Positions 2,676-23,854 are shown, counted from the stretch's first letter. The stretch: DNA of 39,783 nucleotides from a virus (IMGVR_UViG_3300025575_000008:1-39783); one strand, 5' to 3'. Translations and numbers: made by a program. The notes: generated by a model from the sequence alone, not told the origin.

Positions 2676-2714
2676 AAAAAGCTACTTCCTTAATTGGAGG
2701 TAGCTTTTTTTTTT
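2676..2714. terminator. Bidirectional rho-independent terminator
   Basis: AAAAAGCTACTTCC-TTAATT-GGAGGTAGCTTTTTTTTTT; lies between the lysis genes and the convergent minus-strand unit. Confidence 0.85.
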
Positions 2715-2825
2715 AATGTTTTTTAATGTTTTTTTAACTTGTTTTCTGCAATTTCTATAATTATCCCAATACGTCCACATTAAATGCCATGCCATCTTAT
2801 GAACTTTCTTTTGATACTTATTCAT
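2682..2825 (-). CDS. Small basic hypothetical protein (47 aa) downstream of tRNA-like RNA 1
   Basis: RBS AGGAGG; MNKYQKKVHKMAWHLMWTYWDNYRNCRKQVKKTLKNIKKKSYLQLRK. Confidence 0.55.
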   Translation of the reverse strand: MNKYQKKVHKMAWHLMWTYWDNYRNCRKQVKKTLKNIKKKSYLQLRK

Positions 2826-2856
2826 TTTCATCCCTCCTGTTATAGTAGATTTAAAT

Positions 2857-2918
2857 TGGTGGAGCGTTCGGGAATCGAACCCGACCCTTCGTTATGCATA
2901 CCACTACACCAACGCCCC
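2857..2918 (-). ncRNA. tRNA-like RNA 1: 62 nt, no anticodon arm, alanine identity (G3:U70, A73)
   Basis: GGGGCGT-TG-GTGT AGTGGTAT GCAT-AACGAAGGG-TCGGG TTCGATT CCCGA-ACGCTCC-A-CCA: 7-bp acceptor stem, D arm, T arm, encoded CCA. Confidence 0.8.
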
Positions 2919-2981
2919 ATATGCACTATTAATTAATTTTGTAAGCTAATCGACAAGGGAAACAGCTATTTAAGATCGATC

Positions 2982-3107
2982 TTAATTTCCCTCAATATCT
3001 TCACACTTGCCATCATCATCTACTGTGATGCAAGCCAAAGTACATTCACCATCATCGTTGTTTATGCAATTTACTGCATTACACAAAATCTATTTTCTTC
3101 CGTCCAT
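2982..3107 (-). pseudogene. DUF1540-like Cys-rich microprotein interrupted by an in-frame TAG at codon 6
   Basis: RBS AGGAGG; MDGRK*ILCNAVNCINNDDGECTLACITVDDDGKCEDIEGN; TAG at 3090-3092. Confidence 0.6.
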
Positions 3108-3137
3108 TTTATTCCTCCTATTATAGTAGATTAAAAT

Positions 3138-3217
3138 TGGGGGTTGTAGAGGAATTGAACCTCCGACCATTCCTATCGAATTGTACACTCCAAATAGTAT
3201 AGACACCATGCGAACCC
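3138..3217 (-). ncRNA. tRNA-like RNA 2: 80 nt, degenerate cloverleaf ending in CCA
   Basis: 5' GGGTTCG pairs with 3' CAACCC (one bulge) followed by CCA; T arm GGAGG-TTCAATT-CCTCT; non-canonical D-like (ATGGTG/TACTAT) and anticodon-like (TTGGA/TTCGA) arms. Confidence 0.65.
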
Positions 3218-3386
3218 ATATAAATCTACTTCTAAAGGCAAGTCAGTAGTTGTTCTTTTAACCCAAATTATGTAGTTTGTTTTGGTAAATCAATAAGTGT
3301 CACATGGTTGTACCCTCCTTATTAGTTTCAATCCTTGTTTTTATGGATGTTATACTGGGGCACTACTCGTTTGTTACTACTCTTTT

Positions 3387-3415
3387 ATTGTATTCTTAAT
3401 AAATTGCTTTGTCAA
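3387..3415 (-). promoter_or_regulatory. Sigma-A promoter driving the tRNA-like operon
   Basis: Minus strand TTGACA(3415-3410)-17 bp-TACAAT(3392-3387). Confidence 0.8.
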
Positions 3416-3424
3416 TGAATATTC

Positions 3425-3453
3425 TTGCATATCCAAGAAACCTATGTTATACT
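3425..3453 (+). promoter_or_regulatory. Divergent sigma-A promoter
   Basis: TTGCAT-17 bp-TATACT with an extended TG. Confidence 0.65.
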
Positions 3454-3472: not shown

Positions 3473-3667
3473 GTGCGTAAGAATGCCATTAGCATAGACT
3501 TAAACGATAAGGCAAAGGCAGTATATGATGGACTTCCAAGAGAGGTCCGCAAGGGCGAATGGGTGTCCCATGCTATTATTGAATTTGACGGTAAGGCGGA
3601 ACCATTTACAGAAGAACAAAAGCAATGGATAAGAACAGAAATAGCAAGCTTTTTAAGTGGTAATTGA
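3473..3667 (+). CDS. Small RHH-type DNA-binding protein (64 aa, GTG start)
   Basis: RBS AGGAGGTG before GTG 3473; RKNAISIDLNDKAKAVYD...WVSHAI. Confidence 0.6.
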   Translation: MRKNAISIDLNDKAKAVYDGLPREVRKGEWVSHAIIEFDGKAEPFTEEQKQWIRTEIASFLSGN

Positions 3668-11551: not shown

Positions 11552-12292
11552 GTGTCAGTACAAAAAGAGAACGGATATACACCAATTGCAAATGAAATAC
11601 TTGAAAAAATAGCACAAATAAAATTAAGTCCTACTCAATACCGTATTATATTTATTATTTGGCGGTACACATATGGGTTTAATAGAAAGACTCATGACTT
11701 ATCATTAAGCTTTATATCTAAAGCAATAGGATGCGATAAAAGACAAATACAAAGAGAATTGAAAAATTTAGAAGAAAGGAAAGTAGTTAAACAAGATATA
11801 ACAAATGGTAAAAGTAGGTATATAAGTTTCAATAAACATTATTATCAATGGGTTGGTGAAATTAACATTGGTGAAACAACCATTGGTGAAATAGACAATG
11901 GTGAAATAGACAATGGTGAAATAGACAATGGTGAAACAGTCAAAGGTCCATTGGTGAAACAGTCAAAGGTAACCATTGGTGAAACAGACAACCAAGAAAG
12001 ACATTCTTTTAAAGACAATATTAAAGACAATATATTATATCCGTATTTGAAAGAAGTTAAGGGTTACCCATATGACAACGACATTGATGCTGAAATGATG
12101 AAACGGTTAAAAGATAAATACCCTAAATTAGATATTGAATCGGTAATAGATGATTGGTCAATAGCCAAACTAGGAAAACCTTTAAAAGCTAAAGACAATC
12201 CGAGAAGTCAGATAAATACATTCTGTACTAATGCGGTTAAATGGGGAAATCACATTAAAGAAGTTGGAAGATATGATGGAATAAAATTATGA
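11552..12292 (+). CDS. Phage replication initiator, lambda-O-like N-terminus
   Basis: ENGYTPIANEILE...IIWRYTYGFNRK; internal iterons. Confidence 0.9.
   Translation: MSVQKENGYTPIANEILEKIAQIKLSPTQYRIIFIIWRYTYGFNRKTHDLSLSFISKAIGCDKRQIQRELKNLEERKVVKQDITNGKSRYISFNKHYYQWVGEINIGETTIGEIDNGEIDNGEIDNGETVKGPLVKQSKVTIGETDNQERHSFKDNIKDNILYPYLKEVKGYPYDNDIDAEMMKRLKDKYPKLDIESVIDDWSIAKLGKPLKAKDNPRSQINTFCTNAVKWGNHIKEVGRYDGIKL
11853..11990 (+). repeat. Iteron array, lytic origin
   Basis: Eight copies of TGGTGAAA in about 15-bp units (e.g. ATGGTGAAATAGACA), followed by an AT-rich duplicated TAAAGACAATAT. Confidence 0.88.
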
Positions 12293-14405: not shown

Positions 14406-15290
14406 ATGAGAGTTGGTTTAATTGACGTGGACGGATATTCTAATTTTCCCAATCTTGCTTTGATGAAAATATCAGCATACCACAAACAGCAAGGTGACCA
14501 AGTTGAGTGGGGAATACCAATGTTGAGTTATGACATTGTATATCAATCAAAAGTGTTTGATACTTCACCTGATTTTGATACTTACATCAATGCAGATCAG
14601 ATTATAAAAGGTGGCAGGGCCTACGATAAAAAACAAGTATTACCACAAGAAATAGAGACATTGTGTCCTGATTATTCGCTTTATAATATCAAAAATGAAG
14701 CATATGGATATTTGACAAGGGGTTGTCCGAGAGGTTGTCCGTTCTGTGATGTAGTCAATATCGAAGGTAATAAAAGTTATAAGGTAGCAGATTTGAACCA
14801 ATTCTGGAAAGGTGAGACATCAATAAAGCTTTTGGATCCAAATACATTGGCTTGCAAAGATAGGTTAGAATTACTTGACCAACTGATTGATAGTAAAGCT
14901 TGGGTGGATTTTACACAAGGGTTAGACATTAGATTTATGGCTGATGAAGTGATTGAGAAAATAAAACAAATTAGAATTAAAATGATCCATTTTGCTTGGG
15001 ATGGCGAAAGAGACACAACATTAATACTTAAAAACTTAGAACATTTTAAAAAAGAAACTAATATTGATTCGAGAAAATTAAGGGTTTATGTATTAACCAA
15101 TTATGAAACTGAACACAGCTTTGACTTAGAAAGAATTTACAAGTTAAAAGAGTTAGGTTATGACCCTTATGTGATGGTATTTGATAAAGATCACGCACCA
15201 AAACAAACAAAAAAGCTGCAACGCTGGGTAAACAATAAATTTATTTTTAGGGTGTGTGAAAGATTTGAAGATTACGGAAAGGTGGGGTGA
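14406..15290 (+). CDS. Radical SAM protein
   Basis: CxxxCxxC motif in TRGCPRGCPFC; FPNLALMKIS; FTQGLDIR. Confidence 0.9.
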   Translation: MRVGLIDVDGYSNFPNLALMKISAYHKQQGDQVEWGIPMLSYDIVYQSKVFDTSPDFDTYINADQIIKGGRAYDKKQVLPQEIETLCPDYSLYNIKNEAYGYLTRGCPRGCPFCDVVNIEGNKSYKVADLNQFWKGETSIKLLDPNTLACKDRLELLDQLIDSKAWVDFTQGLDIRFMADEVIEKIKQIRIKMIHFAWDGERDTTLILKNLEHFKKETNIDSRKLRVYVLTNYETEHSFDLERIYKLKELGYDPYVMVFDKDHAPKQTKKLQRWVNNKFIFRVCERFEDYGKVG

Positions 15291-19130: not shown

Positions 19131-19292
19131 ATGAAAGTAACATTATGTAAAAGTTGCCACGATAAATTTTACCCAGATTCAAAATTGCCAGAAATATTAG
19201 GTATTGCATCGTATACCGCCACAGGATATTGCAAGCACTGTGGAAAAAGATCAAATGTGAAGAGATATGAAATTCAAGAGGTGCAAAAATAA
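19131..19292 (+). CDS. Zn-finger microprotein (53 aa)
   Basis: CKSC...CKHCG; strong RBS. Confidence 0.65.
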   Translation: MKVTLCKSCHDKFYPDSKLPEILGIASYTATGYCKHCGKRSNVKRYEIQEVQK

Positions 19293-19861
19293 TGGATGGA
19301 AATATATTAGCAAATAAAAGTGCATATGATAGACCTAAAACAGATTTTTACCCAACACCAGATGAAGTAACTATTGCATTATTAAATTATTTAGAGATTC
19401 CAGACGGGTCAACTATATGGGAATGCGCTTGCGGTGAAGGACATATGGCAAAAGCGCTTGCTAAACGTGGACATTGGGTATATCCTACCGATCTCAACGA
19501 AACAGGTTACGGATATAATGGAATAGATTATTTAAAAACTCAAATGATACCATGCGATTGGATAATAACAAATCCTCCATTTAATGTGTCAGAAGAATTT
19601 ATAAGAAGAAGTATAGAGCATAAAAAACCATTTGCATTATTATTGAAATCTCAATACTGGCATTCAAAAAGTAGATTAAAAGTATTTGAGGATTTTAGAC
19701 CAGAAGCAGTATTGCCATTAACATGGAGACCAGATTTTTTATTTGGCGCAAAAGGTGGAGCGCCTACAATGGAATGTATATGGACGGTATGGGGTACAGA
19801 ATCAGCAAAAATTACAAGATATGAACCTTTAAAGAAACCTAATATAAAGGAGGCGGTATAA
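19292..19861 (+). CDS. Orphan amino (N6-adenine-type) DNA methyltransferase
   Basis: DFYPTP, IWECACGEG (motif I), ITNPPF (motif IV). Confidence 0.88.
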   Translation: MDGNILANKSAYDRPKTDFYPTPDEVTIALLNYLEIPDGSTIWECACGEGHMAKALAKRGHWVYPTDLNETGYGYNGIDYLKTQMIPCDWIITNPPFNVSEEFIRRSIEHKKPFALLLKSQYWHSKSRLKVFEDFRPEAVLPLTWRPDFLFGAKGGAPTMECIWTVWGTESAKITRYEPLKKPNIKEAV

Positions 19862-23037: not shown

Positions 23038-23274
23038 ATGAATATAGTATACACAATTGGTTTACTAGCTGCTTTTATAAGCGGCTTTTTTGTTGCACTG
23101 ATTTGTATTAAGGTGGGTTTGACTTGGCAGATGCAAATAAAAGAGGGTAAAGAGCCAGAGTTACATAATCCAGTTGATTCAGTTGTTAAAGCGGTACAGC
23201 AGAACAAACAAGATAAGGCAGTTAATTACAGCACAGAGCAGGTGACGGAATGGCTTTATGGAGAGGGTAAATAA
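23038..23274 (+). CDS. Single-pass membrane protein upstream of the portal
   Basis: N-terminal hydrophobic helix IGLLAAFISGFFVALICI. Confidence 0.65.
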   Translation: MNIVYTIGLLAAFISGFFVALICIKVGLTWQMQIKEGKEPELHNPVDSVVKAVQQNKQDKAVNYSTEQVTEWLYGEGK

Positions 23275-23275
23275 T

Positions 23276-23854
23276 ATGATACCGTTTCCAAATAAAAAAT
23301 ATCAGATAATTTATGCAGATCCGCCTTGGAGTTATGGCAATAGGATGTATTCATCTAACAAGACAGACCACCACCGAGCAATTACAAGGGCATATGATGT
23401 AATGTCAACTAATGATATATGTCACTTACCAGTCAGACAGATTATCCATGACAATTGTGCCTGTTTTATGTGGACAACCGATTCACATTTGCCAGATGCA
23501 TTGGAAGTGATGGAAAACTGGGGATTTAAATATAAAACCATTGCATTTGTATGGAACAAAAAAGAGTTAAGCGGCAAACAGGTATGTTATATGGGGCAGT
23601 GGACTATGAAAGGTAGCGAGATATGTTTGTTCGGTACTAAAGGGAAAATGACACAGTATCTTGTCGCCAGAAATGTCAGACAACTGATTGAAGCAAAACG
23701 TGATAGGACTAAGCATAGTAAAAAGCCGCAAGAGGTAAGAGAAGCAATAGTCAAGATGTTTGGTAGTATTCCTAAAATAGAATTATTTGCAAGGCAGAAA
23801 GTAGAAGGTTGGGATTGTTGGGGAAATGAAGTTAACGTGGAGGTAAATAAATGA
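23276..23854 (+). CDS. MT-A70-family adenine methyltransferase
   Basis: KKYQIIYADPPW, FMWTT, WGFKYKT, HSKKP, IELFAR, WDCWGNE. Confidence 0.93.
   Translation: MIPFPNKKYQIIYADPPWSYGNRMYSSNKTDHHRAITRAYDVMSTNDICHLPVRQIIHDNCACFMWTTDSHLPDALEVMENWGFKYKTIAFVWNKKELSGKQVCYMGQWTMKGSEICLFGTKGKMTQYLVARNVRQLIEAKRDRTKHSKKPQEVREAIVKMFGSIPKIELFARQKVEGWDCWGNEVNVEVNK

Follow-up and report, generated by a model that had tools for sequence, protein, structure and literature searches.

A solitary CRISPR repeat and an anticodon-less tRNA-Ala mimic in a putative phage accessory operon: possible RNA decoys against host defence

The stretch of DNA analysed here, referred to throughout as the window, comprises 39,783 nt and is a complete circular contig (39.8 kb, with a 127-nt terminal repeat and 35% GC). 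A scan of its 46 ORFs with PHROGs named an endolysin, ParA, an HTH regulator, an anti-repressor, replication functions, a terminase, a portal protein and head proteins, and found neither an integrase nor cas genes among these 46; we infer that the window represents a temperate phage-plasmid. Two replication-initiator-like genes (69–794 and 11552–12292) are present in this 40-kb phage along with ParA and without an integrase match, and the window also contains two DNA methyltransferase genes (19292–19861 and 23258–23854) and a radical SAM gene (14406–15290). An identical copy of the phage (3062/3062 bases compared) is held by a metagenome-assembled genome (MAG) labelled Ruminiclostridium sp. 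(L200, G001), which is the only lead to a host, from a MAG that is incomplete and whose binning may be wrong. The stretch occurs in runs of peat metagenome DNA, no RNA run being listed among them, and contigs from two of these runs (X1 and X2, a possible source) span positions 2701–3415 with no listed differences. In both runs a related contig of lower depth has positions 2499/2563–2700 (the holin end and the terminator) in common with the window and carries other sequence after 2700, so that the block beyond this point looks like the content of an accessory slot. A search for relatives via the endolysin gave one distant locus, without DNA likeness.

The block is located on the minus strand next to the lysis genes, between the holin gene (which ends at 2655) and a divergent small ORF. 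Its predicted promoter is a sigma70/sigmaA-type site (3387–3415, minus strand) with the form TTGACA-17-TACAAT, which matches the consensus at 11/12 positions, in a window where sigma70-type sites are not above chance (5 found versus 5.7 expected). At the other end lies an intrinsic terminator-like hairpin (2676–2714; z = −4.5 for 2676–2709), which has T runs on both strands and faces the lysis genes, and no minus-strand ORF of more than 49 aa lies inside. A preliminary description of this DNA had proposed a self-contained unit, bracketed by its own near-consensus promoter at 3415–3387 and terminator at 2714–2676 and devoid of long ORFs, and these points are all borne out. The divergent ORF (3473–3667, plus strand) has an RBS and would encode a 64-aa orphan, possibly a regulator of the operon promoter, near which there is an 8-bp palindrome (3417–3424). 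No homologue and no fold match were found for this protein, for which a single-sequence model has a pLDDT of 69 and a pTM of 0.37; with no fold match for the model, its identification as a ribbon-helix-helix protein is unsupported. By eye, two features can be made out at 3417–3453: the palindrome, which adjoins the −35 box, and, for the 64-aa ORF, an extended −10-like site that is absent from the promoter scan list.

Directly behind the promoter, starting approximately 20 nt after the inferred transcription start, lies a lone CRISPR repeat (3325–3361, minus strand), which the preliminary description had missed and which was found by an Rfam scan (CRISPR-DR7; 41.4 bits against a gathering threshold of 37). 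Read from 3361 to 3325, its 3′ 17 nt are intact and its 5′ part has diverged. There is no second repeat in the window, where the next best place agrees at 23/37 positions. When genomes of the order of G001 were searched with the last 18 bases, allowing one mismatch, 26/149 gave matches, mostly in arrays, and the whole repeats in these genomes were 25–30/37 identical to that of the window with the 3′ 17 bases unchanged. The typing of cas genes covered stretches of G040, G053 and G043; in the first two, type I-B and III-D cas genes lie next to the arrays, and the stretch of G043 carries housekeeping genes, so the link to I-B/III-D holds in 2/3 of the genome stretches typed. Neither an array of this repeat family nor a Cas6 match was found in G001 itself, the incomplete and possibly misbinned MAG. 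Among viral contigs with the repeat family, 34/39 loci have one exact match, i.e. single copies are common, and in the other viral solitary repeats the 5′ part has drifted in the same way. In run X1, a 332-nt contig has a similar repeat, differing from 3320–3353 of the window at 4 of 34 bases, which indicates that the family is present in the community. At 6/29 solitary repeats (L324/L346, L338/L355, L335 and L343, around position 1500) the diverged 5′ part and the downstream sequence form a stem (P up to 0.05 versus shuffles). No anticodon-less mini-tRNA was found within 1.5 kb of the repeat at any of the 39 viral loci; at three of them the opposite strand bears tRNA-like genes of other kinds. 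At L349:1062–1166 (−) and L336:1180–1260 (−), ARAGORN missed irregular tRNA-like genes, which are close to a solitary repeat and opposite to it in strand.

Racrs are solitary CRISPR repeats that lie in intergenic phage regions directly behind a promoter, without cas genes, as described in the main text of Camara-Wilpert et al. (2023; PMC10651486). The features of this group that were found in the window are a match to a known repeat, its solitary and intergenic position, the absence of cas genes and a promoter upstream, and the likeness extends to an intact Cas6 end and to a place upstream of small genes in one unit. The window repeat differs in belonging to a family linked to I-B/III-D and in putatively sharing a transcript with a tRNA mimic; the main text of PMC10651486 makes no use of the word tRNA. 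The order promoter, repeat, small ORFs would also suit a CreTA/Cracr-like circuit, in which the repeat yields a guide, the host Cascade represses the promoter and an ORF or RNA acts as the toxin, and viral crlRNAs that redirect Cas have been described (bioRxiv 10.1101/2024.10.29.618823). We consider such a circuit very improbable here, given the missing second repeat and a putative guide that, within the window and the genome stretches of four relatives, matches only RBS-like sites (11/12 and 14/20). Behind the repeat is a third RBS, also missed by the preliminary description, that is followed by ATG-TGA (3300–3319, minus strand), a dead or minimal frame. The 5′ part of the repeat pairs with this RBS in a local fold, yet a Cas6-controlled translation switch at this site was rejected on account of P = 0.11 and the ATG-TGA frame.

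The second RNA-like feature of the block, element 2 (2857–2918, minus strand), is a 62-nt mimic of tRNA-Ala without an anticodon arm. It has a fully paired 7-bp acceptor stem (7/7), A73 and an encoded CCA end, a D arm whose loop has the customary GG, a connector of 9–11 nt and a 5-bp T arm (5/5); the D stem needs a shifted register and the element can also fold 8/4. The length of 62 nt and the short connector mean that the anticodon stem-loop is absent. Together with A73, G3:U70 in the acceptor stem constitutes the tRNA-Ala identity elements, G3:U70 being described as the determinant for alanyl-tRNA synthetase (PMC5389517). ARAGORN called no tRNA gene in the window, element 2 included, and against the Rfam tmRNA model the element reached 22.7 bits, where gathering is at 47. 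Its acceptor stem and 3′ end are identical to those of phage tRNA-Ala(UGC), with ARAGORN calling tRNA-Ala at the match in 8/13 loci, plus further ones, and, in a pool enriched for such ends, Ala tRNAs make up 13 of the 20 closest. Element 2 differs from phage tRNA-Ala(UGC) in being approximately 14 nt shorter, in lacking the anticodon stem-loop and in lying outside a tRNA cluster. When the 149 genomes of the G001 order were searched with a further model (R1), the 150 matches listed besides element 2 all had lengths of 75–77 nt. A 72-nt tRNA at L115:301–372 (−) has an alanine-type acceptor and a CUA anticodon (Pyl according to ARAGORN), making it a candidate amber suppressor, and its 3′ 30 nt differ from those of element 2 by one base.

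The short Ala-ended elements picked up by pattern scans fall into two classes, TLD-only tmRNAs and a D-arm type like element 2. The latter accounted for 9/38 loci (7 distinct sequences) in viral contigs and, besides the phage's own copy, for 1/28 in genomes (L183) and 3/27 in metagenomes (L224, L245 and L247). The shape of element 2 was thus found in 11 other sequences, in viral and metagenome contigs, with lengths of 59–68 nt; L177 and L194, with runs of N inside the element, were dropped, as were own copies (L200, L238, L202 and similar), and L139 and L154 are identical to L136. In the resulting alignment of 12 sequences (A1), 90% of cells pair, the D stem only to 62.5%, and 43 cells carry two-sided changes compared with 14.2 in shuffles, none of 500 shuffles reaching 43. 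The acceptor counts of A1 are partly circular: acceptor pairing was a criterion for entering the alignment, and U70 (mostly also G3) was fixed in the search patterns. The distance from D loop to T arm is 15–18 nt in 9/12 of these mini-tRNAs. In line with the preliminary description, which took it for a tRNA mimic, element 2 is something other than a plain canonical tRNA: sequences elsewhere share its anticodon-less shape and have covarying stems. For element 2 itself there is no covariation, no homologous operon having been found. Other small genes are seen near such elements. Next to position 1001 of L136, L162 and L163, a Lys/Arg-rich micro-ORF with 8–9 Cys accompanies a mini-tRNA of 61–62 nt, downstream of it in L136 and upstream in L162 and L163, and the protein of L162 has no Pfam match. 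L245 (64–123) and L247 (808–867) each contain a 60-nt anticodon-less element with A3:U70 rather than G3:U70, followed by a linker like that of the window, an RBS and an acidic ORF.

The other class is common in viral contigs, with 21 distinct TLD-only sequences among 121 matches in 120 loci; 12 passed the Rfam tmRNA threshold among 20 loci scanned, and the short helix 2a is fully covarying. A pattern estimate gives approximately 380 stretches, of which the TLD-only class is a part. Such TLD-only tmRNA-like genes of 62–68 nt are widespread in viral contigs (L018, L022, L034, L035, L040, L049, L050, L059, L062, L064, L066, L078 and others). Known examples, from phage DS6A and plastid forms of approximately 65 bp, are described as short RNAs of alanine identity that end in CCA, have no anticodon arm and cannot decode, and an RNA like that of DS6A as inhibiting tmRNA in trans (PMC4131195, PMC11915505). 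Element 2 shares with them the alanine acceptor, the T arm, the phage-borne location and the absence of both an anticodon arm and a tag frame. It could on these grounds, with its weak Rfam tmRNA match, the abundance of TLD-only RNAs and the DS6A precedent, be an RNA of this type, which when alanylated would bind SmpB where the anticodon arm is missing and block or shortcut trans-translation. We regard this as distinctly unlikely, however, as element 2 derives from tRNA-Ala, with a paired D stem of the tRNA type, and has no TCGAY D loop, helix 2a or GAC joint; these are the parts mismatched in its 27.2-bit alignment to a TLD-only model (R2), and the Rfam score is far below gathering.

Upstream in the transcript lies element 1 (3138–3217, minus strand; alternative 5′ end at 3191), a degenerate tRNA-like sequence. 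Its T arm is intact, the acceptor stem has 5/7 pairs in either of two registers, and the 3′ end is one base short before CCA; neither ARAGORN nor Rfam called it, and it scored 18.6 and 14.7 bits with two models built here. Thus, of the two CCA-ending tRNA-like elements proposed in the preliminary description, element 2 stands with its stems intact and element 1 falls short. Element 1 was rejected as a candidate amber suppressor, since its CTA sits in a 4-nt loop at the position of the D arm. Each element is followed directly by a linker with an RBS and ATG (copy 1, 3105–3137; copy 2, 2823–2856; both minus strand), and the near-identity of the two copies holds up, with 32/37 positions identical compared with 25 in the best of 100 dinucleotide shuffles. 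The direct-repeat homology in fact spans 70 bp (78.6%), from the T arm to the ATG. A leader (3221–3230, minus strand) is complementary to linker 1 (8 bp) and to linker 2 (10 bp), and in a predicted whole-transcript fold it pairs with linker 2 with a probability of approximately 0.86. The idea that the 5′ leader of each element pairs with its 3′ linker fared less well: for element 2 the pairing is at chance level (P ~0.5), and for element 1 the 8 Watson–Crick pairs are suggestive only (P 0.009–0.015 post hoc, and 0.13–0.17 when G–U pairs are allowed). Nor is the ATAT before both elements distinctive, since it is the commonest 4-mer before 72–78-nt viral tRNAs (16/213), 95/213 of which are preceded by a 4-mer ending in AT. 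An exact search for the linker gave no match in IMG/VR, and a search allowing up to three mismatches in a sample of 401 genomes of the class to which G001 belongs (Clostridia) returned only the phage's own copy, so that across these searches the linker is known at two places, both in the window; a family of such cassettes with variable ORFs, as envisaged earlier, did not appear. Rather than a modular unit, the ‘cassette’ most probably reflects a duplication in place of the segment running from T arm and CCA through the linker to RBS and ATG, the upstream copy of which is decaying, and this would explain together the direct repeat, the poor state of element 1 and a broken ORF1.

ORF1 (2982–3107, minus strand; 41 codons) is a gene for a DUF1540 cysteine-rich microprotein, which matches Pfam PF07561 with 23.0 bits (cut-off 22.1) when the TAG at codon 6 (3092–3090) is read as X. 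The one homologue found (P0003) is intact, has 41 aa and is 68% identical, the N-terminus included, with Ser at the TAG site. The linkers were said to supply the RBS and start codon of a tiny ORF, and RBS and ATG are indeed present; the first ATG, however, gives MDGRK-stop, the start of the interrupted DUF1540 gene. TAG is an ordinary stop in this phage, where it ends structural genes directly before the next RBS, and nothing in support of recoding was found, with no PylRS over the cut-off in G001 and no tRNA called by ARAGORN in the window. With a real stop and no such synthetase, ORF1 is most simply taken as broken. Three loci in viral contigs gave possible relatives, all judged false on inspection, and five chromosomal DUF1540-like matches have no mini-tRNA nearby; between ORF1 and the Cys-rich protein of L162, the one partner tested, no relation was detected (E 0.19). 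ORF2 (2682–2825, minus strand) encodes a Lys-rich orphan of 47 aa whose last codons enter the terminator, and no family or homologue was found for it, Atlas matches at 0.91 being without family. Near its end, just before the frame enters the terminator, is a 10-nt tandem duplication (2708–2734).

The first idea offered in the preliminary description was that the tRNA mimics act in cis, by signalling processing or by switching translation of the microproteins encoded downstream. In its favour, both elements do have the linker, RBS and ATG behind them, the order mini-tRNA, linker, RBS and ATG recurs in L224, L245 and L247 (found with a pattern that demanded an RBS) and the same order in L009, L022, L094, L109 and L121, and for cassette 1 there is, besides the leader–linker pairing, a predicted rise in Shine–Dalgarno accessibility from 0.15 to 0.37 on cutting at the CCA. 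The C4 RNA of phage P1 and the CI RNA of phage P4, tRNA-like RNAs that RNase P cuts out of leaders of small-ORF operons in temperate phages, are a precedent for such leader RNAs. Element 2 differs from these in its alanine identity and CCA, and the window contains no Rfam C4-type match at E ≤ 1 and no antisense target pair was found. We hold a cis-acting role to be improbable. In loci from scans that did not demand an RBS, an RBS and start followed 5/41 short elements and 24/208 full-length (72–78-nt) tRNAs (Fisher P = 1), so there is no enrichment; the predicted accessibility in cassette 2 is unchanged by the cut (0.49 to 0.50); and cassette 1 drives a five-codon product, one of the two ORFs being broken. 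Moreover, in Bacillus subtilis tRNAs that encode CCA are described as matured at the 3′ end by exonucleases, with RNase Z serving CCA-less ones (PMC10100781). In a host like B. subtilis, such trimming of element 2 would remove the downstream RBS and destroy the message of ORF2.

Two of the three RBS-start units being dead and element 1 degenerate, the whole block may be decaying, and it could consist of remnants without a current function. On this view, chance loss of the anticodon arm turned a tRNA-Ala into element 2, the repeated segment is a mere duplicated piece, the CRISPR repeat was picked up from elsewhere and the ORFs are pseudogenes. The TAG in ORF1 where the homologue has Ser, the ATG-TGA behind the first RBS, the mispaired element 1 and an orphan ORF2 running into the terminator all speak for this reading, as does the lack of a homologous operon. 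None was found in IMG/VR (exact linker), in the 401 genomes, in 50,697 phage and 72,556 plasmid records or, among the matches listed, in the 149 genomes of the order; blastn gave only short chance-level or T-arm/terminator matches in the phage and plasmid records, and CRISPR repeats and the terminator as the top matches listed in the order genomes. We nevertheless rate decay of the entire block as somewhat unlikely, for element 2 pairs without fault in its acceptor and T stems and agrees in length and connector with independent families that show two-sided changes, the promoter retains 11/12 consensus positions and the repeat has kept its Cas6 end while its 5′ part drifted, as in other viral solitary repeats.

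Our preferred interpretation, held at a little short of even confidence, is that the block is an accessory operon of host-RNA mimics, a Racr-like repeat and a tRNA decoy, directed against host defence. A decoy function of the released RNAs was the second idea of the preliminary description and is the best reading here; it is favoured by the position of the repeat directly behind the promoter without cas genes among the 46 ORFs, and by the perfect stems of element 2 while its neighbours carry lesions, and the inhibition of tmRNA in trans described for a DS6A-like RNA offers a precedent. According to this working model, one transcript of 700 nt would start from the promoter at 3415–3387. Host Cas6 would bind the repeat and cut 8 nt from its end, and Cas6/Cas7-type subunits of I-B/III-D systems would be tied up in a Racr-like manner. 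RNase P would cut before the G at 2918 and a 3′ exonuclease would trim to the encoded CCA, giving a 62-nt RNA that alanyl-tRNA synthetase may charge via G3:U70 and A73 and that could not read a codon. This RNA would compete for proteins that recognize tRNA by its acceptor–T-arm half, with defence nucleases that cut tRNA as the most likely candidates. The target of the decoy is the weakest step of the mechanism. Cas12a3 is described as gripping the acceptor stem, CCA tail and T arm of tRNA (PMC12851939), and Cash, activated by type III systems, as cutting tRNA T loops (PMC13462974); these are the surfaces that element 2 keeps, which speaks for the decoy reading. On the other side, phage tRNAs are described as giving rescue from the P2-OLD tRNA nuclease by replacing tRNA, not by acting as decoys (PMC12445682), which counts against a decoy mechanism, as do the absence of such a mini-tRNA within 1.5 kb of the repeat at the 39 viral loci and the lack of a homologous operon in the collections searched. 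The more specific proposal, that a single transcript combines two RNA mimics, the CRISPR repeat jamming I-B/III-D complexes as a decoy and the chargeable, anticodon-less tRNA sponging up effectors that cut tRNA downstream of these or other defences, must be viewed as doubtful.

The proposed operon of mimics has partial counterparts among known systems. Like phage morons and accessory units, the block has its own promoter and terminator, lies on the opposite strand next to lysis genes and is absent from the related contig; it differs from them in that its content is mostly non-coding RNA mimics. Allo-tRNAs and other irregular tRNAs encoded in polycistrons are described as including some with G3:U70 and some that are charged and unused in translation, near toxin–antitoxin genes (Mukai et al., PMC5389517). 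Element 2, an irregular tRNA-like sequence with G3:U70 that can fold 8/4, is similar to allo-tRNAs in these respects, whereas allo-tRNAs keep the anticodon arm and a long variable arm (PMC5389517). SRUs and TLD-only phage RNAs are already published; for anticodon-less phage tRNAs of the D-arm type, or for an operon of repeat and tRNA mimic, no description was found in open-access main texts, and Supplementary Data 1 of SRUFinder may list the repeat.

The conservation of the mini-tRNAs across unrelated phages points to a non-decoding role, because acceptor, D and T arms alone cannot replace a tRNA. Even if the block decays, the mini-tRNA class and the TLD-only RNAs merit Rfam models, given that ARAGORN calls nothing at element 2, which at 62 nt is also an easily synthesized test object. 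The presence of a Racr-like repeat beside the mini-tRNA provides a concrete lead for this class, namely anti-defence by mimicry. Were the double decoy borne out, it would be the first case of tRNA-targeting immunity being countered by an RNA decoy, and a widespread and apparently undescribed class of 59–68-nt phage mini-tRNAs would gain a function.
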